Source: a virus | Lineage: Duplodnaviria; Heunggongvirae; Uroviricota; Caudoviricetes | Strand: one strand, 5' to 3' | DNA: 53,833 bases | IMG/VR virus record: IMGVR_UViG_2740892427_000003 | Shown here: piece by piece, positions 1 to 40,276 of the stretch | Position numbering within the stretch: the first letter of the stretch is position 1 | How the letters are laid out: every line of letters starts with the position of its first letter | Notes under the pieces: generated by a model | What the model saw: the letters and a program-made list of their open reading frames with translations, nothing else | Database searches by the model: none | Told to the model about the DNA's origin: nothing | Made by a program: the position numbers and the translations under genes

Positions 1-546
1 CTACGCACGTCCAACCAGGTGCTTCACACTCCTGTACTTAAGACCATTTTTACCAAGTCCCATATACAGAAAGGTGTTCACCGTCTTCGTGTTTATCCCC
101 ATTTCACGGGCAAGATGGCAGGGCTTTGACTCCCGGTACACGTATCCAAACATCACCACCATCTCGGACATCGTCAGAGGTCGCGCATACGTATTATGTA
201 CCCACTCACCATTCCGGATTTTCCTGTACGTCTCCAGGCGCCCCGTAACATCTTCCGCATCAATCTGAAGATAACGGCGTCCCTGAAACATGCAGCACAT
301 CAGCCTGCCAAGGAGGGCATCACAGATTATCACCCATGACTCATCATGTGCCGGTACACTCTTCCTGTTCTCTGGTGTAAAAAACTCCCTCGCCAGTATT
401 ATCCTGTACCCCTCAAGCATCTGCTGCAGGCCATACTCCAGATAACGGTTGCGGGTCGCCAGAATCACTTTCATCGCTGTCACCTGTTTCATGCTCACAT
501 GAGAAAAAACGGCAGGCAAAACTCCACGCCTGCCGTCATGCTTCAT
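1..546 (-). CDS. LuxR/GerE-family HTH transcriptional regulator (GadE-like architecture); start codon uncertain
   Basis: C-terminal 55 aa (LTMSEMVVMFGYVYRESKPCHLAREMGINTKTVNTFLYMGLGK) fits the LuxR-type HTH pattern; N-terminal part looks like a degenerate receiver-like domain. ATG at 546; stop at window position 1-3. Confidence 0.45.
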   Translation of the reverse strand: MKHDGRRGVLPAVFSHVSMKQVTAMKVILATRNRYLEYGLQQMLEGYRIILAREFFTPENRKSVPAHDESWVIICDALLGRLMCCMFQGRRYLQIDAEDVTGRLETYRKIRNGEWVHNTYARPLTMSEMVVMFGYVYRESKPCHLAREMGINTKTVNTFLYMGLGKNGLKYRSVKHLVGRA

Positions 547-560
547 GTCACTGTCAGCAA

Positions 561-1805
561 TTAAAACTCAAAGTTCACACCTACGTTGTAGGACACATCG
601 CCATCACTCGCTGCCACACCTGCTTTCGCTGCTGTCTGCTCATTGAAACGGTAACCAACACCCACGGCAACAGCCTGTTTATCACTGTACCCCCCCAGGG
701 CAGCAGTGGCGTTGAATTTCCCCACACTGTACGGCTGGAAAAGCCCCGCCAGCGCTGCACTCTGTGCTGCTGCACGCTTCATCTCTTCGTGATTCTCACG
801 AATTTGACGCTGCTGGCTGTTCAGGCGTGCATTATGTTCCTGCAACTGGCGAGTATTGGACTGAATAGCCTGTGTATTTTTAGTAACCCGGCGGTCAACG
901 CTACCAACTGCAGCATCAATACGGTCTGTTCTGCCGGACAGAGCAACGAGACCGTCATTAACAGCAATCGTTTTTGTAGCGCCATCAGCGCTGGTCAGGG
1001 TTCCGTCCGCATTCACACCAACGGTGGTTCGGGAATCAATTTTATTCGTATTCGCAGCCGTTGCTGCATCAATGATATCTGTGCGGGATGAAAGCTCAGA
1101 CAGTCCTTTCTTCTGGATCGCCAGCCCTTCTTTCTGTTCTTCCACATCTTTCGCTATAGTGACAACGCCGTCATTGATACGTAACGGCGTTACAATATCT
1201 GTCTCATTCAGAGTTAGCTTACCGTTTTTATCTAGGCCAATTGCGCTATTTGCAGCCTCTGTAGCCAGATAAGTCTGCAAAGACACGCGTTCTTTAATAC
1301 TCTCTGCACTAGTTGCCACTCGCCCATATTCATCCAGACCAACATTAGTTTCCATTTCAGAGATCGCAGCAATTCTGCCAAAAAGATTCCGAATATCAGC
1401 ATCAGATACAAGGTCTGTTTGAGTACCCTCTTTCTTTCCAAGAGTGTTTTCTTTATCCTGCTTGACCAGTGAATTCATTAGGTTATGAAACTCCCGGTCA
1501 TACACACGATATGTACTAGTGCCATCCTTGGTAGTAACTTCTACAGTCCCATCTTTATTAATTTTTGATAATCCTTGTACAATATCTCCATCTTTAATCC
1601 CCTCAACACCGCTAGGTACTTTTTTCCATTTAACATAAGCGGTATCAGAATCACTATTATAAACAATGGTGTAAGTACTTCCGTGTTTACCTAACACATC
1701 CAAGGCGCTGTAGCTATATTCATTTGCACGTGTAAAAGAACTAACACTCAACAGACCTACAACCAGAGAAGATGACAGAAGTGTCTTTGTGATTTTTTTA
1801 CTCAT
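561..1805 (-). CDS. YadA-like trimeric autotransporter adhesin, Eib-family candidate
   Basis: Signal peptide ([24 protein letters not shown]), coiled-coil-rich passenger, and C-terminal anchor ending GVGYRF...YNVGVNFEF typical of the YadA-like membrane anchor. AGGA Shine-Dalgarno 8 nt upstream of the ATG. Confidence 0.6.
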
Positions 1806-2923: not shown

Positions 2924-4651
2924 TTATAATGGAAAATACTCAAACCCCGAAGCTCCTGACGACACATACTCACCCACGCTGACTGTACGCCACTGAGAAC
3001 CATCAAATGTCACCTGAAGCGGCCTGTAAGATACCCTGTCAATAAGGGTTTTGTTTCCGTCGTTGTAACCGCCAATCCCCGTAATCATTGCACCAATATC
3101 CAAATCCACTGCCCATGTAGTGCTGTCTGTTTGCGGCGCATAAGTCTGTTTATTACCCAGCCTGATACCCACAACCCGGCTCTTCCCGTCTGATGCCCCG
3201 GGCGGCCCCATCGGCCCGGTTTCTCCACGCTCACCTCTGGGACCGGGGTCGCCTTTCTCCCCTTTCGGTCCCTGCGCTCCCCGCGGACCAGCGGGGCCTG
3301 TTGCTCCCGTTTCACCTTTCGGACCCTGTGCTCCGGGGTCGCCTTTCTCTCCTTTCGGACCGGGAACACCACCTCCTGCTGCAGCCTCTTCTGCCTTTGT
3401 TTTCGCTTCATTTGCCACATCCATTGCCGCCTTCACGGCCTTCGGCGTGGCTGCCTTTGTTTCGTCATTACTGTCAGTATCACTGCTTAACTGCACCACA
3501 CCTTTCTGCGTCGTACTGGCATCCCGCTGGCTGACCGTATCCGGTTTGTTTTTTGTGCTGTAATCCACCCGCCAGTGGAAATACCGTGTGTCGCCGTAAA
3601 CCGTACAGGTACAGACCGTGCCATTAATAAACCCCGTTGCACCGTATTCGCCAATGGTGACCCGGACTATGGCAGCCTCATACGTTCCCATCACCTCAAT
3701 GACACAGCCACCCAGATTGAGTTTTCCCGGTCCGACATCTGTGATGACTTTATTCATTGACGCAAGCAGTGATGCCTTCATCATCCAGTAAGGCTGGTCA
3801 AATGCCCCTTTTTCTTTCAGCCAGGCAACAAACTCGCGTGTTTTCCATTCACCGGCCCCCGTATGAATGTCCCGCCCGTATACTCTGGCTGCTCCCACGG
3901 TGTTCAGAAACTTCACCTTATCCGGGATATCATCACCGTTTTTCGCTTTCTCCAGGCATCCGTCCGCTTTGTCCATTGCCGATTTCACCGCTTTCGGGGT
4001 GGCTGCCTTCGTTTCGTCATCACTGTTCGTTGTGCTGCTTAACTGCACAATTCCCTTCTGTGCCGTCGTCGCATCCGGTCCTCCCGGCTCGCCTTTTTCG
4101 CCCTTCTCTCCCCGTTCACCTTTCACACCCTGAAGCCCCTGTGGTCCTGTCTCACCCCGCTCACCCTTTGGCCCACGCTCGCCGGTATCGCCTTTTGGCC
4201 CGGGAATACCCTGCGGCCCGGTGTCCCCCTTATCCCCCTTCGGTCCCCGCGCATTCTCTGCCCGTTTTTTTGCCTCCTCCGCACTGGCTGCGGACGCTTC
4301 CGCACGTTTCAGGATTTCCGCTGCCACCGCTTCCAGCTCTGCAAGGGCTTTCGGGTAATACTGTGCGTCTTCCAGGTCCATCAGAAATTTATTCAGCGTT
4401 CCCGGTGCAGAATCCGCCTTCACCAGAATGTCACCCACATATGACGGCGCGTACCCTTCCGTGTTCAGCGTCACCCGGTACAACCCCGGCTCAACATCCA
4501 TACTGTAACTGCCGGTTTCCCCCGGCTGACCATACGCCACCGTAGTGACAATCACCGTCTCCGTTGTGCGTCGCGCTTTCAGCTCTATCGTGCATCCCGG
4601 TACCGCTTTTCCCGTACCATCCTTCAGCACACCCGATATTCTGACTGTCAT
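2924..4651 (-). CDS. stf: side tail fiber protein with collagen-like G-X-Y repeats
   Basis: 575 aa with two collagen-like [13 protein letters not shown] tracts and a duplicated KAATPKAVK segment; sits between J and tfa. Confidence 0.8.
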
Positions 4652-25050: not shown

Positions 25051-26712
25051 TTATATGAAAAAAACCGCATATTCTTTCTTTTTGGGCTCCGGATTCAGGG
25101 ATATCAGGGATACCGCATTGAACAGCGCCATCAGCGGGTCAATTTTCCCCCGTCCGCTGGCCTGTTTGGTAATAAGGATGGCGTTACCTTTAGGCTCCAC
25201 CCGGGCATTGCCAACGCACCAGGCCATCAGTGGCTGACCACCATGCACCAGCACTCCCTCAGCCAGTTTGCGCTCGGTGGTTTTGATGGCCCCGCCCAGC
25301 TTCCAGCCCTGGCTTATCCCCACAACAATTCCGTCGGGGATCCCGGCTTCCGCCAGTGAATCCAGAATCTGCCCCACACCTGACGGGTCAATACCGATAT
25401 GATCCAGTAACTCAGCCTCATGAATACGACGCACATACTCCGCCACTTCCGCCGTGTCATCCCCGACCCGACGGACAATCGTCATGTCTCCACAGGCCAC
25501 AAAATCCTGAAAACGGGATGCCTCACTCTTCCGTCTGACCACCGCTGTTTCATGCGCCCAGGCATGGCCCCAGCCCAGCCATTCGCGGGTTTCCCTGTCA
25601 CGGCCAATCACGTACATTCCCAGCAGATCATCCAGGCCCCCGCCGTCAATCCCCACCGTCACCACATCAGCGCGCTGCAGAATATCGTCCAGGCTGACGC
25701 GCCTGCCCTGCTGCTCCCAGAAATCCGCACCCGCCCAGCGGTCAGAACGCAGGGCAAGACCAATTTCCACATTGGCGTGTTTTGACATGAACCCCCGGAA
25801 TGTATCTTCACCGGCTTCCCGGGCTTTACGATACTCCCGGTACAGAAAGGCCTCATCCACCGAATAACCGAGATTCGGATTGACCATGGCGAGGTTTTCC
25901 ATCAGCAGGTGCTCACCGCGCTCCACCATCTCCGGCGGATGCTCAAATATCACCGGCAGAAAGTGCGGATCATGAATTTTGCCGTCGCGCACATCCCGGG
26001 CGTACTGCAGTTTCTGTCTGAACACCCCGGCGGGCGGTTCATTCGACTGGGTGGTCGTATACACCACAAACCCTTCCGGGCGGGAGGCAAGGCCACCTAT
26101 GGCTTCACGTAACATGTCCTCCGCTTTGTACTGCTTGCCAAACAGCCACAGTTCATCAATCAGTGTCCCCACGGACTTGATACCGGACACCGTATTCGGA
26201 TCGGCTGCCACCACCTTCAGGGTGGTGTCCGTCACCCGATGGGTGATGGTCCGGATATGTGTCTGCACCTGACAGAGGTCATCCAGATCATCGTCCCGTC
26301 GTACCATATCCCTGGCAGGATTGAAGGCATTAGCCGCCACCTCCACGGTCGGGGCCAGAATGGTGTAGCCCGCCGCCTGCCGCCAGTTCAGTAACAGCGC
26401 CGTCATCATGATCCCGGCAGCCAGCGTGGACTTGCTGTTTTTTTTGGGTATCAGAATGAACACTTCCTTTATATGGCGTACACCGGTCTGCGCATCGTAG
26501 GAGCCAAACAGGGCAGCCACCAGATCAAACACCCACGGTGCACAGGACTCCCCGAACGTCGGGCTGCCCGGTGCATCCACAATCCGCAGTTGTTTAAAAA
26601 TCGCCAGGGCATGTGCGGCCTGGTCCGGGTAAATCGGAGCCGGAATAATCGACAGCCCCTTTTTCAGGCGCTCTGCCCAGTCCGGGCAGGCCGTGCTCCA
26701 CACAGGTATCAT
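25051..26712 (-). CDS. terminase large subunit
   Basis: 553 aa with terminase ATPase and nuclease pattern. Confidence 0.9.
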   Translation of the reverse strand: MIPVWSTACPDWAERLKKGLSIIPAPIYPDQAAHALAIFKQLRIVDAPGSPTFGESCAPWVFDLVAALFGSYDAQTGVRHIKEVFILIPKKNSKSTLAAGIMMTALLLNWRQAAGYTILAPTVEVAANAFNPARDMVRRDDDLDDLCQVQTHIRTITHRVTDTTLKVVAADPNTVSGIKSVGTLIDELWLFGKQYKAEDMLREAIGGLASRPEGFVVYTTTQSNEPPAGVFRQKLQYARDVRDGKIHDPHFLPVIFEHPPEMVERGEHLLMENLAMVNPNLGYSVDEAFLYREYRKAREAGEDTFRGFMSKHANVEIGLALRSDRWAGADFWEQQGRRVSLDDILQRADVVTVGIDGGGLDDLLGMYVIGRDRETREWLGWGHAWAHETAVVRRKSEASRFQDFVACGDMTIVRRVGDDTAEVAEYVRRIHEAELLDHIGIDPSGVGQILDSLAEAGIPDGIVVGISQGWKLGGAIKTTERKLAEGVLVHGGQPLMAWCVGNARVEPKGNAILITKQASGRGKIDPLMALFNAVSLISLNPEPKKKEYAVFFI

Positions 26713-27272
26713 CCGCTGCCCTCATTATCATTATTCACCACCAGTCGGGGGGGTGGTGGCACCGCAAAACGGTTAGCCGCTTTTTTCGCCGCGTCACCTT
26801 TTGCCGATTTTTTACCGGCATCCCCTTTTTTGTGGTGCGTGAACTGTGCCAGCTTATAAGCCACATCCAGCGCCAGCCTGGGGTCGGTATTAATGTTCTC
26901 CACCAGAAGACGCCCCATCGCTTTCACCGGATCGGGAAGACCGTCATCCATATACTCAATACCAGGAGATATCACCACGGGCAGTGGCATCTCCGGATTT
27001 GTTTCGTCCGGCTGTGGTATTGCAGCCGCCTCACGGCGACGGGGTTTATCCTCCTGCTCTGATTTTTTCTGCCGGTAAACAGGAACCTCATCCACCTCTA
27101 CCGTCTCGCACTGCTTACGGGCTATAAACGCGAGCACCTCCGGATCTTTTGCCAGCTGCGAGCCTTTAACCCTGGCTGTCTTCGCCGAATAACCGGCGGC
27201 AATGGCTGACGCTGTTTTGTTTTTCCCGGACATGAGCGCCAGCGCAAATTTTCGTTTTTGCGTTGTCAGCAC
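26709..27272 (-). CDS. terminase small subunit
   Basis: 187 aa; KRKFALALMSGKNKTASAIAAGYSAKTA matches the TerS N-terminal DNA-binding motif; 4-bp overlap with TerL. Confidence 0.7.
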   Translation of the reverse strand: MLTTQKRKFALALMSGKNKTASAIAAGYSAKTARVKGSQLAKDPEVLAFIARKQCETVEVDEVPVYRQKKSEQEDKPRRREAAAIPQPDETNPEMPLPVVISPGIEYMDDGLPDPVKAMGRLLVENINTDPRLALDVAYKLAQFTHHKKGDAGKKSAKGDAAKKAANRFAVPPPPRLVVNNDNEGSG

Positions 27273-27560
27273 AGCCTCCTCCCGGGTCCAGAATGCACTC
27301 AGCCGGGTATGGTTCAGCCCATTTTTCCCGGCGTCTCATGCCGCAAATGTTAACTGCTGCCTGGTTAACATTTGCTGAAAAAGCCTGTTAACATTTTTCC
27401 GCGCAACAAACTGAATAATAAAGATAAAAACTGCAAAAATGCCCGTGAAGCCAGTTAACATGTTAACTGACCTGAAACGGGAATTTTTTCTCTGCGTGAG
27501 AGGGGGCGCGGTGTCCGGAGCGATCGTTTTTTACGCCGGATGATACCCCCCCGGGTCGGG
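27273..27560. promoter_or_regulatory. putative cos / terminase recognition region
   Basis: Non-coding segment between HNH and TerS with five GTTAACAT/ATGTTAAC motifs (27346-27468) and a GC-rich segment at 27480-27545. Confidence 0.4.
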
Positions 27561-27926
27561 TTACAGTCCGATGATGTCGTCCGCTCTGCCACTACCTCCG
27601 GACACCTCCGACAGTGTCGGGTCCGGCATACCACCCGCCGCTTCACGAGCAGACTTTTGTCGATGGCATTCGGTACAGAGCGTCCAGAGATTCGTCTCCT
27701 CATTACCACCACCGAACTGAAGTGCAATTCGGTGATCGAGTTCACTGTCACAGAGGTCAACCACACGACCACAGAGACAGCACTGCCCGGCATCCCTGAG
27801 CCAGATATGACGCTTGAGGGAAACACGTGCACTGCCACTGACACGACGCTGTTCACCCTTCAGAATATTCACCCGTCGGGTATTCAGTGTTTTGATTCTG
27901 CTCTGGAGTGTACGAAGCTCAGCCAT
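27561..27926 (-). CDS. HNH endonuclease (terminase-associated)
   Basis: 121 aa with CxxC...H...CxxCH zinc-finger/HNH pattern (CCLCGR...LDHRIALQFGG...LWTLCTECHRQK). Confidence 0.8.
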   Translation of the reverse strand: MAELRTLQSRIKTLNTRRVNILKGEQRRVSGSARVSLKRHIWLRDAGQCCLCGRVVDLCDSELDHRIALQFGGGNEETNLWTLCTECHRQKSAREAAGGMPDPTLSEVSGGSGRADDIIGL

Positions 27927-27967
27927 GTAAAATCCCCGTCATAAGGCAATCAGTAAAGGAAATAAAT

Positions 27968-28168
27968 ATGTCATCGAAAAACCGGACCCGCAGAACCACA
28001 ACCCGCAATATCCGTTTCCCCAATCACATGATTGAACAGATCAACATCGCCCTTGAGCATAAAGGGTCCGGTAACTTTTCAGCGTGGGTTATTGAAGCCT
28101 GCCGGAGAAGGCTGGCAACAGATGCAACGCACCTGCGCCCGGCCAGCATGACAAATAACGAGAAATGA
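27968..28168 (+). CDS. putative ribbon-helix-helix DNA-binding protein
   Basis: Start trimmed to MSSKNRTRR (AAGGA upstream); IRFPNHMIEQINIALEHKGSGNFSAWVIEACRRRL fits an RHH pattern. Confidence 0.35.
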   Translation: MSSKNRTRRTTTRNIRFPNHMIEQINIALEHKGSGNFSAWVIEACRRRLATDATHLRPASMTNNEK

Positions 28169-28299
28169 ACGTTCGGTTACAGGAGCAGGTACCCACTGTC
28201 CTCCAACAATATTTCATCTTCATACCCGGCGGAACAAGACTTACCCAGCCGGGATGTACAGAATAACAACAGAGTGATAATTAATTTCTGATGAAATAA

Positions 28300-28626
28300 T
28301 CAGGGTGCAGAAGGACTAAAGATAAACGTTTTCTTCACGCCTTTACGCGGCCTGTCCTTCTCAAATCGCCATTTTGCCATCGCCTTTACAACCTGCTCAT
28401 CAAACAGATGGTGCGGCTCTGAACGGATAAACTCAATTCGGGTGACAGTACCATCAGCACCAATATCAAACTTCACATCAACCCGTCCCTTTATATAATT
28501 TGCCGCTGCATAGGCCGGATATTGTGGTAATGCCTTAACCAACTGTCGGGGCATATCTGTTTTATGTTGCGTACAGCCCATAACCAGAGAAGACAACAAA
28601 ATAATTAACGGAAGATTTCTTTTCAT
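28300..28626 (-). CDS. TonB C-terminal-domain lipoprotein
   Basis: Lipoprotein signal MKRNLPLIILLSSLVMGC; PQYPAYAAANYIKGRVDVKFDIGADGTVTRIEFIRSEPHHLFDEQVVKAMAKWRFE aligns closely with the E. coli TonB C-terminal domain as recalled. Start could instead be 28632 or 28641. Confidence 0.75.
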   Translation of the reverse strand: MKRNLPLIILLSSLVMGCTQHKTDMPRQLVKALPQYPAYAAANYIKGRVDVKFDIGADGTVTRIEFIRSEPHHLFDEQVVKAMAKWRFEKDRPRKGVKKTFIFSPSAP

Positions 28627-29156
28627 TTTCATTCCCGGCACAGATAAGAATAAGTCTTATTCTAACAATGCCACCCTGTCGGCCATCAATCCTCTGCTTA
28701 ATGGCAACGACAATTATCCGACTTAAATCACAAATCAGACACATGACATAACAGGTCTTGCGAGGTAACACATCGTCCGGTTTCTTCCACCATCGCACCG
28801 GACCAGCGACCATGAGGGGACAACGCCGCGCTCCGTTAACGCGGTAAACCCCGGTGTGTATCGTTTTTGATTATCCCCGCACACTCGCGCAGAGGAGTCT
28901 CCCGGTCGGGCTGCGGTCTCTGTTAATGCAGCGGATACCATGCGGCATTTAGCGGCATTCATCGTATACTCAACGGTTAGCTCTTCATTCGTGGCATTCA
29001 CCTGAAAGGTCCGGGAGTGTAATTGCGTACATTTACCACTGAACGAACCTTCAACAAGAACACGACCACGCTGCAAAATACGGAACGGAATTGTTCCCTG
29101 AAAAGGCTTTACGGTTACCAATAATTTCTGCATGCATTCTCCGAATAACAAAAATA

Positions 29157-29630
29157 CTAGTTAATACACTGAGTGCGGATATATTCCTGAAGCATTCTCA
29201 ATGCTGCCTGGTCGCTGATGATTCCGTCTCTGATACCGAGAACGTTTCGTCCAGCAACCGGAGAGAGTTCGACGGCGGCATCATTGCCCACGCCGGAGGT
29301 GCCGGTGGCTTCACGCACGGTACCGGGGCAGGTGGCGTTGATCCGCAGGCGCTTACGACCAGCGGCAACATCAGCACGCAGAGTTTCATTTTCAGCTCTC
29401 GCATCGGCTAATTCCCTCGAGTATTTTGCATCGAGCGCAGCAACATCGCGCTGGCGCACCTGCATATCAGTAATGGTTGCGTTTGCCAGCTCCAGCTCTC
29501 TGGCTTTTTTATCACGCTGCGCTTTGTAGGTGATGGCGTTATCGCGGTAATGATTCAGCCCCAGACTAAGCGCACCACAGACCACCAGCAGAATAACGGT
29601 AAACGCGGAAAGCATTCGGTTTATGCTCAC
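29157..29630 (-). CDS. Rz: i-spanin Rz
   Basis: 157 aa; [45 protein letters not shown] is lambda Rz-like. Confidence 0.9.
29198..29404 (-). CDS. Rz1: o-spanin Rz1, embedded in Rz in the +1 frame
   Basis: Lipoprotein signal [15 protein letters not shown] followed by a Pro-rich segment, nested inside Rz. Confidence 0.8.
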
Positions 29631-29758
29631 CCCAGCATCCCCGACGAAGATAACATCATCCAGCCCATGGAAAGAAAAAGAGCAACCAGCATTAGTGAAA
29701 ATGAAATGCCGATGATTACACAGAGGATCTTCGCCAGCATTATGAGTTTGTCTGACAT
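29627..29758 (-). CDS. small hydrophobic protein (43 aa) immediately upstream of Rz
   Basis: GGGAGG 7 nt upstream of ATG at 29756-29758; [43 protein letters not shown]; stop overlaps the Rz GTG. Confidence 0.4.
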
Positions 29759-39921: not shown

Positions 39922-40276
39922 GCACACCCACCTCTGTAATTCTTATCTCCAGCCGTCCACCAGATACTGGCTGGCCACGTACAATATTGATTTCATCAAA
40001 CTGCTCATCGTCCATTAACAACCCTGCATGCGTCAGCGCATCCAGCGGCGCTTTCAGGATATTATCCAGGTCACGGCGGCGCTTATCCGGTGGCTCTGCA
40101 ATCACCTTTATCGCCAGCCTTCCGGACAGGCTTAATTTCAGCCGCTGCTGGCGAACAATAAGCGCCACTGCCCGGCGATAGCGCTTTCCCTCCTCAGATA
40201 TAAAATATGTGCTGCCACGACGTCGCCAGTAAGTATTCACCGTCGGCGGATAAGGCAAAACAAACTCTATACGCAT
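39914..40276 (-). CDS. rusA: Holliday junction resolvase RusA
   Basis: 120 aa; MRIEFVLPYPPTVNTYW...RRDLDNILKAPLDALTHAGLLMDDEQF typical of RusA. Confidence 0.85.
   Translation of the reverse strand: MRIEFVLPYPPTVNTYWRRRGSTYFISEEGKRYRRAVALIVRQQRLKLSLSGRLAIKVIAEPPDKRRRDLDNILKAPLDALTHAGLLMDDEQFDEINIVRGQPVSGGRLEIRITEVGVHE

Follow-up and report, generated by a model that had tools for sequence, protein, structure and literature searches.

The DNA stretch of 53,833 nucleotides that was analysed (the window) is a lambdoid Escherichia coli prophage, and it carries the gene of a small, selectively maintained, predicted outer-membrane lipoprotein, which is essentially the receptor-docking end of TonB. 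The coding sequence of this TonB_C lipoprotein is located on the minus strand at 28300..28626, stop codon included, and encodes 108 amino acids. The reading frame contains alternative start codons at 28632 (ATG) and 28641 (GTG) on the same strand. The conserved start is the ATG at 28626: position 28632 ATG reads ATA in 12 related loci, the phage-21-type genes have their start codon at the equivalent of 28626, and the database homologues are 108 residues long with the N-terminus MKRNL. The preliminary description of the locus had correctly placed the end of a lipoprotein reading frame at 28300, whereas its length of 111 residues is slightly off because the conserved start is at 28626. The gene is, as judged from its dN/dS ratio of 0.12–0.19, under purifying selection.

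Position of the gene between the lysis and packaging modules

The reading frames, Pfam matches and syntenic annotation place the gene in the moron slot between the lysis genes Rz/Rz1 and the YnfO-like, HNH and terminase genes, as had been proposed. The upstream boundary of the slot is the gene of the i-spanin Rz (29157..29630, minus strand), which was assigned from the list of reading frames and the syntenic annotation of JLK-2012. The o-spanin gene Rz1 (29198-29404, minus strand), recognized by its lipobox, is embedded in Rz. On the other side, a gene of the YlcI/YnfO family (DUF3950; 27908..28168, plus strand) is convergent with the TonB_C gene and is identified by Pfam DUF3950 (E 6e-20) and NCBIfam YlcI_YnfO_N. 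The HNH endonuclease reading frame (27561..27926, minus strand; Pfam HNH and syntenic annotation) forms the downstream boundary and is followed by the genes of the small (26709-27272) and large (25051-26712) terminase subunits, according to the syntenic annotation.

The same slot is occupied in phage 21, Perceval, ev017, JLK-2012, Stx1a phages and a Klebsiella phage. Alignment with phage-21-type and L004 loci identified a conserved block, CCGGTGCGATGGTGGAAGAAAC..GATGT.TTAC (28763..28801, minus strand), which constitutes the 5' part of the cassette and travels with the TonB_C gene across different phage backbones. The cassette adjoins the HNH gene and an HK97-type terminase in the window, whereas it adjoins a Nu1-type terminase in the phage-21-type loci, and a Klebsiella phage carries the gene as well. 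The TonB_C gene is an insert between conserved phage modules that recurs in different phage backbones, and in this sense it is a moron. A reading frame at 28735-29151 was considered as the partner in a two-gene cassette and rejected, since it is without homology to the genes upstream of the homologues, the homology of the window to other carriers (Stx1a phages and JLK-2012) begins inside it at ~28938, and its 5' part contains a terminator-like hairpin. This reading frame is probably a mosaic junction and not a partner gene.

The preliminary description had pointed to lambda bor as the occupant of this slot. Lambda Bor/Iss is likewise a lysogen-expressed outer-membrane lipoprotein moron located between the lysis and packaging genes. 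However, bor has no homology to the TonB_C gene and lies on the opposite strand, whereas the TonB_C gene points in the same direction as the late operon. Both bor and the TonB_C gene occur in phage 21 and Perceval, and no cor- or bor-like lipoprotein is encoded in the window. The gene stx1 is iron-regulated. Stx genes were sought in the window, as Stx1 phages carry the TonB_C gene, and none were found. The Rfam scan of 27500-29700 identified no RNA family, and no defence-system model of PADLOC matched the TonB_C lipoprotein gene.

Of 5426 complete E. coli genomes, 417 (~8%), among them O157:H7 and other Shiga-toxin-producing strains, carry the gene under the annotation "TonB family protein", and it was already annotated in Stx1a phages and in the classical phage 21. 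The protein LF82_160 of Perceval is 71% identical to that of the window. In the lysogen, this "TonB fragment" was transcribed 8-fold above the prophage background in LB, and it was published as a lysogen-expressed moron, as was sitABCD of the same prophage (PMC9928086). The literature search for the function of phage TonB-like proteins found no functional study, only annotation and the LF82 transcriptome table.

Lipoprotein signal and TonB C-terminal domain

The N-terminus of the protein is a lipoprotein signal peptide (28573..28626, minus strand), MKRNLPLIILLSSLVMG, followed by Cys18. The lipobox LVMGC, which had been noticed before, is present in the sequence and satisfies the pattern [LVI][ASTVIM][GAS]C, indicating putative lipidation of Cys18. 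The lipobox is kept across family members in the forms L[AS]VGC, LSAC and LLGC. The cysteine is followed by Thr at position +2 and Gln at +3, and position +2 is occupied by Ser, Ala or Thr in all inspected homologues and by Asp in none. Asp at +2 is the Lol-avoidance signal. Because the window's protein has Thr+2/Gln+3 and no Asp, this rule predicts that it is sorted to the outer membrane.

Residues 26–103 (28318..28551, minus strand) form a TonB_C domain that aligns without gaps to residues 152–230 of E. coli TonB, with 39.7% identity over 78 residues. Both Pfam PF03544 (TonB_C; E 5.5e-15, 56 bits against a cutoff of 24.6) and TIGR01352 (56.5 bits against a cutoff of 27.1) match the protein above their cutoffs, which bears out the domain assignment of the preliminary description. 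The NCBIfam TonB equivalogs score 49–73 bits, below their cutoffs of 265–448, and the protein is not TonB proper. Structures of the TonB C-terminal domain in the PDB are matched at E ~1e-16, including those of the complexes with BtuB and FhuA. The AlphaFold2 model of the lipoprotein has a pLDDT of 84.7 overall and of 93–98 within the domain, and contains β-strands at residues 47–55, 61–70 and 94–103, the last of which is predicted to be the Ton-box-pairing β3 edge strand. A Foldseek search with the model returned TonB from the BtuB and FhuA complexes (2gsk_B and 2grx_C) with an rmsd of 1.1 Å and a TM-score of 0.91, and also weak matches to TolA.

The protein shares with the C-terminal domain of E. 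coli TonB (residues ~150–239; PDB 1U07, 2GSK, 2GRX) the fold, the YP motif, the aromatic core and the β3 strand. Y36/P37 correspond to Y163/P164 of TonB, and F53, F75, W86, F88 and F103 correspond to F180, F202, W213, Y215 (with the substitution Y215F) and F230. In contrast, it has no counterpart to the final ~9 residues of TonB, and Q160 and R166 are replaced by Leu and Tyr in the alignment. We take R166 to be a FhuA-contacting residue. The TonB-box specificity of the phage protein may therefore differ from that of TonB. As had been proposed, the membrane anchor and the Pro-rich spacer of TonB are absent because the whole protein is 108 residues long: the alignment begins at TonB residue 152, a cleavable lipoprotein signal peptide takes the place of the N-terminal transmembrane anchor, and only seven residues (TQHKTDM) separate Cys18 from the domain. 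Unlike TonB, the phage protein thus cannot couple to ExbB/ExbD, and it is predicted to be attached to the outer membrane by lipid. The sequence, profile and structure evidence supports the identity of the gene as that of a lipoprotein consisting essentially of the TonB C-terminal domain.

Palindrome, promoter and Fur-like sites

A perfect 8-1-8 palindrome, AGAATAAG-N-CTTATTCT, is located at 28647..28663, 21–37 nucleotides upstream of the ATG at 28626, in agreement with the preliminary description, which regarded it as Fur-box-like. The occurrence of one such palindrome in the window is at about the level of shuffled sequences (0.73 ± 0.89). Of 70 near-identical viral loci, 65 preserve the palindrome, whereas the remaining five contain a C>T change in its right arm. 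The phage-21-type and L004 relatives, which are 71–72% identical, lack the right arm. The part of the upstream region that is conserved in these diverged relatives (TGTTAGAAT, TGTCAGAAT, TGATTAAAAT) is an extended −10-like motif, TGT-TAGAAT (28659..28667, minus strand), which overlaps the left arm of the palindrome. The start of transcription is predicted at ~28650–28652. The assignment of an extended −10 promoter is putative, because a simple sigma-70 −35/−10 scan found no canonical promoter on the strand of the TonB_C gene.

The preliminary description had counted 13 of 19 matches to the Fur consensus GATAATGATAATCATTATC. The count is correct, but it does not provide support above chance, since matches of at least 13/19 occur 14 times in the window, compared to 6.6 ± 3.3 times in dinucleotide shuffles. 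The arms of the palindrome, read from the sequence, agree with the Fur 7-1-7 half-site at only four of seven positions, and the dyad axis of the palindrome is 3 nucleotides off the Fur-box axis of the earlier alignment. We therefore consider that the Fur-box-like palindrome is weaker than had been presented. The earlier observation is thus partly confirmed and its interpretation partly supported, with the gene identity and slot backed by sequence, profile and structure.

Fur-like sites were scored with a small, consensus-seeded position weight matrix derived from 14 Fur sites in 14 promoter regions of K-12. Two overlapping Fur-like 19-mers are positioned 3 nucleotides apart at 28643..28664. 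The one centred on the palindrome (28646-28664) scores 10.9 bits and ranks fourth among ~53,800 positions, and the one in the register of the earlier alignment (28643-28661) scores 8.5 bits. Real Fur sites score 9.6–20.4 bits in the leave-one-out analysis, so the palindrome site is comparable to the weakest of them, and in K-12 non-target DNA five sites in 56.8 kb reach 10.9 bits or more (~1 per 10 kb). The probability of a maximum of at least 10.9 bits in shuffles of 28627-28800 is 0.014. Another Fur-like 19-mer (28612..28630, 11.6 bits) covers the start codon; its score may reflect composition because the site overlaps A-rich coding sequence. A third one (28270..28288, 12.6 bits) closely follows the stop codon on its 3' side, in the gap that separates the TonB_C gene from the convergent YnfO-like gene. 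The segment 28250-28800 contains three sites of at least 10 bits, whereas 0.13 are expected. The best site in the window (38616, 13.3 bits) has no iron context.

Homologues of the lipoprotein are also encoded outside prophages, in the chromosomes of Klebsiella, Enterobacter and Raoultella. These proteins, annotated as "TonB family protein", are 110–111 residues long, contain a lipobox and a TonB_C domain, and have 45–46% identity to the window's protein. Tandem Fur boxes that score 15.7–17.8 bits and are spaced 6 bp apart directly precede the start codon of the genes from Klebsiella sp. R445, Enterobacter sp. JUb54 and Raoultella planticola; the Klebsiella/Enterobacter promoter reads ATTGATAATTATTATCAAT. 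The survey of chromosomal homologues is thin, as the contig scan yielded only five loci; the survey covers three genera, including L002. The strong tandem Fur boxes predicted at the chromosomal homologues of these three genera are new here. In contrast, the Fur-like site of the window's copy is no more than borderline, and the promoters of the phage-21-type, L004 and Klebsiella-phage copies, with best Fur scores of 2–5 bits, have none. The promoters of the chromosomal homologues are not alignable to that of the window.

Whatever the role of the protein, the window's copy could be an iron-regulated moron that is directly repressed by Fur bound to the palindrome. The palindrome-centred site covers the likely −10/+1 region, and its second register is 3 nucleotides away. 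Fur clusters typically contain pairs of sites 3 or 6 bp apart (PMC2189734). The low shuffle probability, the number of neighbouring sites, the Fur boxes of the homologous chromosomal genes, and a validated Fur site that the K-12 Qin prophage contains in its corresponding nohA-ynfO region are consistent with repression by Fur. However, the consensus match is at chance level, and Fur boxes predicted from the consensus at exbD and ygaC did not bind Fur. In addition, scores resembling those of the weakest true sites recur in non-target DNA, the highest score in the window lies away from any iron context, the arms depart from the half-site, and the right arm is neither conserved in relatives nor intact in all near-identical loci. 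We consider direct Fur repression through the palindrome rather unlikely, and the sequence points only weakly to Fur control of this copy. An iron link is not baseless, given a score similar to those of the weakest validated sites over the likely −10/+1, the flanking sites, and the chromosomal Fur boxes.

Proposed decoy function and alternative roles

We tentatively propose that the gene is a lysogen-expressed moron encoding an outer-membrane-tethered decoy of the TonB C-terminal domain, which competes with TonB; we hold this to be quite possible and stop just short of calling it probable. The lipoprotein would reside in the inner leaflet of the outer membrane, with the TonB C-terminal domain as its sole folded part, ~7 residues from the lipidated cysteine. 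The domain may dock by β-strand augmentation onto the TonB boxes of FhuA, FepA, BtuB, Cir and other transporters, and perhaps also onto those of group-B colicins. Since it has no ExbB/ExbD-coupled anchor, it could not transduce energy and would act as a competitive decoy. The decoy would reduce the TonB-dependent entry of T1/phi80-type phages, of colicins and of microcins, at some cost to siderophore and B12 uptake. Transcription would most likely start from the gene's own extended −10 promoter (TGTTAGAAT), and the palindrome over −10/+1 could be an operator, of which Fur is a possible, weakly supported ligand. Read-through is also expected during lytic growth, given that the gene and the late operon are transcribed in the same direction. 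We infer the docking, the decoy action and the lowered TonB-dependent entry, and the decoy is mechanistically plausible.

Cor of phages phi80, N15 and HK022 is an outer-membrane lipoprotein that blocks FhuA, the phage's own receptor. The lipoprotein Llp of T5 blocks FhuA from the periplasmic side (bioRxiv 10.64898/2026.03.26.714494). Like the protein proposed here, Llp and Cor are small phage lipoproteins of the inner leaflet of the outer membrane that act on a TonB-dependent transporter. However, they are specific for FhuA, whereas a mimic of the TonB C-terminal domain would target the Ton box common to all such transporters. They also appear unrelated in sequence to the window's protein, whose Pfam and PHROG matches are TonB_C and phrog_1267 only. 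Self-exclusion through an FhuA-type receptor is not supported for this prophage. The C-terminus of its J protein is lambda-J-like (44.6% to lambda J), with no matches of the phi80/T1 type, so J is not an FhuA-type receptor binder and the gene is not obviously one of self-exclusion.

Engineered periplasmic TonB fragments are likewise isolated TonB domains without energy coupling. Overexpression of the periplasmic TonB domain inhibits the import of iron through TonB-dependent transporters, including FecA- and FhuA-dependent transport (Howard, Herrmann, Stratilo & Braun 2001, J Bacteriol 183:5885, as cited in PMC9841981). A Ton-box pentapeptide lowers colicin killing and phi80 infection, according to PMC9841981. 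However, the engineered fragments are artificial, soluble, overproduced pieces of host TonB, whereas the phage protein is natural, diverged, phage-borne and predicted to be lipid-anchored. TonB-dependent transporters vastly outnumber TonB, and a decoy would therefore have to be abundant.

The strong Fur boxes of the chromosomal homologues speak against the decoy, since they suggest induction together with iron-uptake genes, which fits an accessory role at least equally well. The lipoprotein could be a positive factor of TonB-dependent uptake that pre-docks, organizes or protects Ton boxes, or handles a particular substrate, and is induced with the iron-starvation regulon. The phage copy would then confer a benefit in iron acquisition, like sitABCD in Perceval. 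A tandem of Fur boxes, as found in three genera, is typical of iron-uptake genes; TonB_C lipoproteins of 107–133 residues form a broad family, and in Perceval the homologue and sitABCD are both expressed morons. However, a protein without an inner-membrane anchor cannot deliver energy derived from the proton-motive force, and inhibition is the sole experimental precedent for free periplasmic TonB domains. Furthermore, Fur sites are mostly missing from the phage-borne copies, and expression of the Perceval copy was seen in LB, which is iron-replete. On this evidence, an accessory role appears unlikely.

Two other roles are less probable still. A stabilizer that binds peptidoglycan or outer-membrane proteins, or a Bor-like serum-resistance factor, could reuse the TonB_C fold for an envelope or virulence function unrelated to Ton boxes. 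The slot is shared with bor, both genes are kept in other phages, TonB_C/TolA-III-like folds serve diverse protein contacts, as the weak TolA matches recall, and the key residues Q160 and R166 are changed. We regard such a role as very unlikely, as the protein is far closer to enterobacterial TonB (~40% identity, rmsd 1.1 Å) than to other proteins with this fold, and it retains the strand that pairs with the Ton box as well as the aromatic core. A lysis function of the o-spanin type is suggested by the PHROG label "Rz-like spanin" (phrog_1267, category lysis, E 2.6e-42) and by the position of this lipoprotein gene directly after the lysis cassette. It is extremely improbable, given that the prophage has its own complete Rz/Rz1 pair at 29157-29630, the protein contains a globular TonB_C domain and is not a short Pro-rich o-spanin, homologues exist in non-phage chromosomal loci, and a homologue is transcribed in lysogens. 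The spanin label is most likely an annotation carry-over.

The proposed decoy can be extended to a more speculative scenario, which we consider doubtful though worth stating. By sequestering the shared Ton box, an outer-membrane-tethered TonB mimic could protect the lysogen broadly, and independently of the receptor, from TonB-dependent phages, group-B colicins and microcins, so that exclusion and defence would act at the energy-coupling step and not at a single receptor. The mimic would have been derived from a Fur-controlled chromosomal family of Enterobacteriaceae that tunes TonB traffic under iron starvation.

If the decoy function is true, a gene that ~8% of the complete E. coli genomes carry would influence several traits together: susceptibility to TonB-dependent phages, colicins, microcins and sideromycin-type "Trojan horse" antibiotics, and the uptake of iron and B12. 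It would be a natural version of the laboratory dominant-negative TonB fragments, in which a phage copies a domain of a host protein to jam a host machine. The chromosomal homologues with their predicted Fur control point to an uncharacterized component of the enterobacterial response to iron starvation.

Extent, domain and genomic position of the lipoprotein gene

The TonB_C gene is the single open reading frame on the minus strand in 28641–28300. The preliminary description gave its product 111 residues. The database homologues are 108 residues long and begin with MKRNL, the upstream ATG at 28632 is ATA in 12 related viral loci, and the start of the diverged phage-21-type genes is equivalent to 28626; therefore, the gene spans 28300–28626 and encodes 108 residues. 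The N-terminus, MKRNLPLIILLSSLVMG followed by the lipobox cysteine with threonine at position +2, is a lipoprotein signal peptide, and the rest of the protein is a TonB C-terminal domain. It matches Pfam PF03544 (E 5.5e-15, 56 bits, cutoff 24.6), the search that the preliminary description had suggested, as well as TIGR01352 above its cutoff and the TonB C-terminal domain chains in the PDB (E ~1e-16); the equivalog models of full-length TonB all scored far under their cutoffs. A local alignment without gaps to residues 152–230 of E. coli K-12 TonB has 39.7% identity. The TonB positions Y163/P164, F180, F202, W213 and F230 are kept, and Y215, Q160 and R166 are replaced by Phe, Leu and Tyr, respectively. 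The AF2 model (pLDDT 84.7 overall and 93–98 over the domain) matches the structure of TonB as bound in the BtuB and FhuA complexes with an rmsd of 1.1 Å and a TM score of 0.91. Because only seven residues separate the lipidated cysteine from the domain, neither a membrane anchor nor a Pro-rich rod can fit. The gene and the architecture first read from the DNA, a lipobox joined to a TonB domain lacking anchor and spacer, are confirmed.

In its overall layout, the window is a lambdoid prophage without stx genes. From the integrase at its right end, the order is replication P, Q, a MazF-like gene, two methylases, three tRNAs, a nanS-p-like esterase, lysozyme, Rz/Rz1, the TonB_C gene, the YnfO-like gene in convergent orientation, HNH and terminase; head genes of HK97 type, tail genes of lambda type, J and the side tail fibres make up the remainder. 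The gene thus occupies the lysis-to-packaging slot to which it had been assigned. Both bor and cor are absent from the window, and Rz1 is its sole other lipoprotein.

Several neighbouring features were recorded. Between Rz and the TonB_C gene, a 138-residue open reading frame (28735–29151, minus strand) has mosaic PHROG matches (phrog_2571 and phrog_6954, 'Rz-like spanin') and contains a terminator-like hairpin at 29082–29097; cassette homology to other carriers starts within it, at ~28938. It is probably a recombination junction and not a gene. The HNH endonuclease (27441–27926, minus strand) has 121 residues versus 176 in phage JLK-2012, and its tblastn alignment passes the stop at 27561 with 83% identity up to residue 159, pointing to a premature stop or else to a C-terminal variant in this prophage. 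A PemK/MazF-like toxin gene (38637–39116, minus strand), for which PADLOC gave no match, lies directly downstream of the Q antiterminator (39232–39927). The interval from Q to the nanS-p-like esterase is the stx position in Stx phages; here it contains no stx genes. At 35577–37946 and 36598–36847 (minus strand), it holds a 331-residue open reading frame with methyltransferase-like motifs and no Pfam match, an N6/N4 DNA methylase, and tRNA genes for Arg-tct, Arg-tcg and Met-cat. At the prophage end, past the tail-fibre genes, a 414-residue protein with a signal peptide (561–1805, minus strand) matches PHROG 'adhesin' families at its C-terminus, which may be an anchor of the trimeric-autotransporter kind. 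Next comes an uncharacterised 181-residue protein (1–546, minus strand; phrog_6585). These two genes look like further morons.

The upstream palindrome and Fur

A perfect 8-1-8 palindrome, AGAATAAG-N-CTTATTCT, is present at 28647–28663, as described previously. Its reported 13/19 matches to the Fur consensus were counted correctly, but 14 sites in the window reach at least 13/19, versus 6.6 ± 3.3 in shuffles, and for perfect 8-1-8 palindromes the expectation is 0.73 and one is observed; neither property exceeds chance. Consensus-predicted Fur boxes at exbD and ygaC were not bound by Fur (Chen et al. 2007, PMC2189734). For these reasons, we derived a 19-bp symmetric matrix from 14 promoters regulated by Fur in K-12 (fepA-fes, fepD-entS, fepB-entC, fhuA, tonB, cirA, exbB, ryhB, gpmA, fiu, fecA, fecI, fur and nohA), whose sites score 9.6–20.4 bits in leave-one-out tests. 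Centred on the palindrome, the 19-mer at 28646 reaches 10.9 bits and ranks fourth in the window; the register proposed earlier (28643) reaches 8.5 bits. Of two more Fur-like sites, one covers the start codon (28612, 11.6 bits) and the other is just 3' of the stop codon (28270, 12.6 bits). A maximum of at least 10.9 bits has a probability of 0.014 in shuffles of 28627–28800, and in 28250–28800 three sites reach 10 bits or more where 0.13 are expected. Weighing on the other side, non-target K-12 DNA has, per 56.8 kb, five sites that score 10.9 bits or higher. The highest score in the window, 13.3 bits, belongs to 38616–38634 (GAATTCGATAATCGTTTTC), immediately 3' of the MazF-like gene and without obvious iron context, a reminder of the false-positive rate of the matrix.

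In the relatives, conservation is confined to the left part of the upstream region, TTGTyAGAATAAGAC, which has the form of an extended -10 element (TGn-TAGAAT) and most likely marks a promoter of the TonB_C gene's own. The right arm of the palindrome is deleted in the phage-21 type, diverged in a second diverged phage relative (L004), and carries a C>T change in 5 of 70 near-identical loci. The promoters of these two groups of relatives contain no Fur-like site (best 2–5 bits). The dyad spanning -10/+1 might serve as an operator, a reading that the comparison of relatives weakens. The Fur-box claim for the window copy is borderline. We consider Fur binding to the palindrome possible but rather unlikely.

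Homologues and the link to iron

Of 5426 complete E. coli genomes, 417 carry the 511-bp TonB_C region, every copy being chromosomal and annotated 'TonB family protein'; Stx1a-converting phages, JLK-2012 and Lys8385Vzw have it at 98–99% identity. A 71%-identical allele in phage 21 ('TonB C-terminal domain protein'), Perceval ('TonB fragment'), ev017 ('Partial tonB-like membrane protein encoded within prophage CP-933N') and PhiR phages adjoins bor, upstream of a Nu1-type terminase or cos. A Klebsiella phage carries a 40%-identical copy in the same slot. The gene is already widely annotated and has been noticed since the EDL933 annotation; the PHROGs label, 'Rz-like spanin', is almost certainly a mislabel. 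Purifying selection on the protein is evident from a pairwise dN/dS between alleles of 0.12–0.19. The Perceval homologue LF82_160 is transcribed in LB 8-fold above prophage background (PMC9928086). The literature searched contained no functional analysis of the phage protein.

An exhaustive profile search returned many lipobox-TonB_C proteins of 107–133 residues. Chromosomal, non-prophage homologues with 45–46% identity, 110–111 residues and the architecture of the phage protein are found in Klebsiella sp. R445, Enterobacter sp. JUb54 and Raoultella planticola. A gene for a Rick_17kDa_Anti-type lipoprotein lies upstream of them. Each is preceded by two overlapping predicted Fur boxes, 6 bp apart (15.7–17.8 bits), ending ~10 nt before the start codon (L002 5970–5994, L020 ~3966–3991 and L019 ~3965–3990 in the respective loci); a perfect 7-1-7 TGATAAT-T-ATTATCA occurs in two genera and a variant in Raoultella. 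Because these boxes are strong and present in three genera, the chromosomal branch seems tied to iron starvation. The chromosomal gene looks like an uncharacterised member of the iron-starvation regulon, and its predicted Fur boxes are the new link to iron. The phage copies seem mostly to have lost Fur control, or never to have had it. In the K-12 Qin prophage, GATAATGATTATCATCTAC in the nohA-ynfO intergenic region (L005 3595–3613) is a gel-shift-validated Fur site (Chen et al. 2007, PMC2189734). It adjoins ynfO in the analogous lysis-to-packaging region of this cryptic lambdoid prophage; although not homologous to the palindrome, it shows that Fur sites occur in this slot of lambdoid prophages.

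A proposed decoy or accessory of TonB-dependent transport

Ton boxes bind TonB by β-augmentation on strand β3 (PDB 2GSK, 2GRX). The phage protein is a lipobox-bearing, exported TonB C-terminal domain with the edge strand that pairs with Ton boxes. It would be located directly beneath TonB-dependent transporters and may occupy their Ton boxes without transducing energy, thereby dampening TonB-dependent entry of phages, colicins and microcins at the price of less nutrient uptake. The J protein is lambda-like; therefore, any exclusion would be aimed at other phages or bacteriocins and not at the prophage's own phage. Such a decoy is a reasonable proposal with precedent. As summarized in PMC9841981, iron import is inhibited when the periplasmic domain of TonB is overproduced (citing Howard 2001), and a Ton-box pentapeptide lowers colicin killing and phi80 infection (citing Tuckman & Osburne 1992). 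Llp of T5, also a phage lipoprotein, blocks FhuA from the periplasmic face (bioRxiv 10.64898/2026.03.26.714494), whereas the TonB_C protein would act on Ton boxes.

The strongest competing explanation is that the protein has a positive, accessory role in uptake, as the predicted Fur control of the chromosomal homologues suggests. An envelope function unrelated to Ton boxes and a spanin-like role are lesser rivals. If the decoy hypothesis is true, the phage copy would be a natural dominant-negative TonB fragment, akin to the exclusion-type outer-membrane lipoprotein morons.
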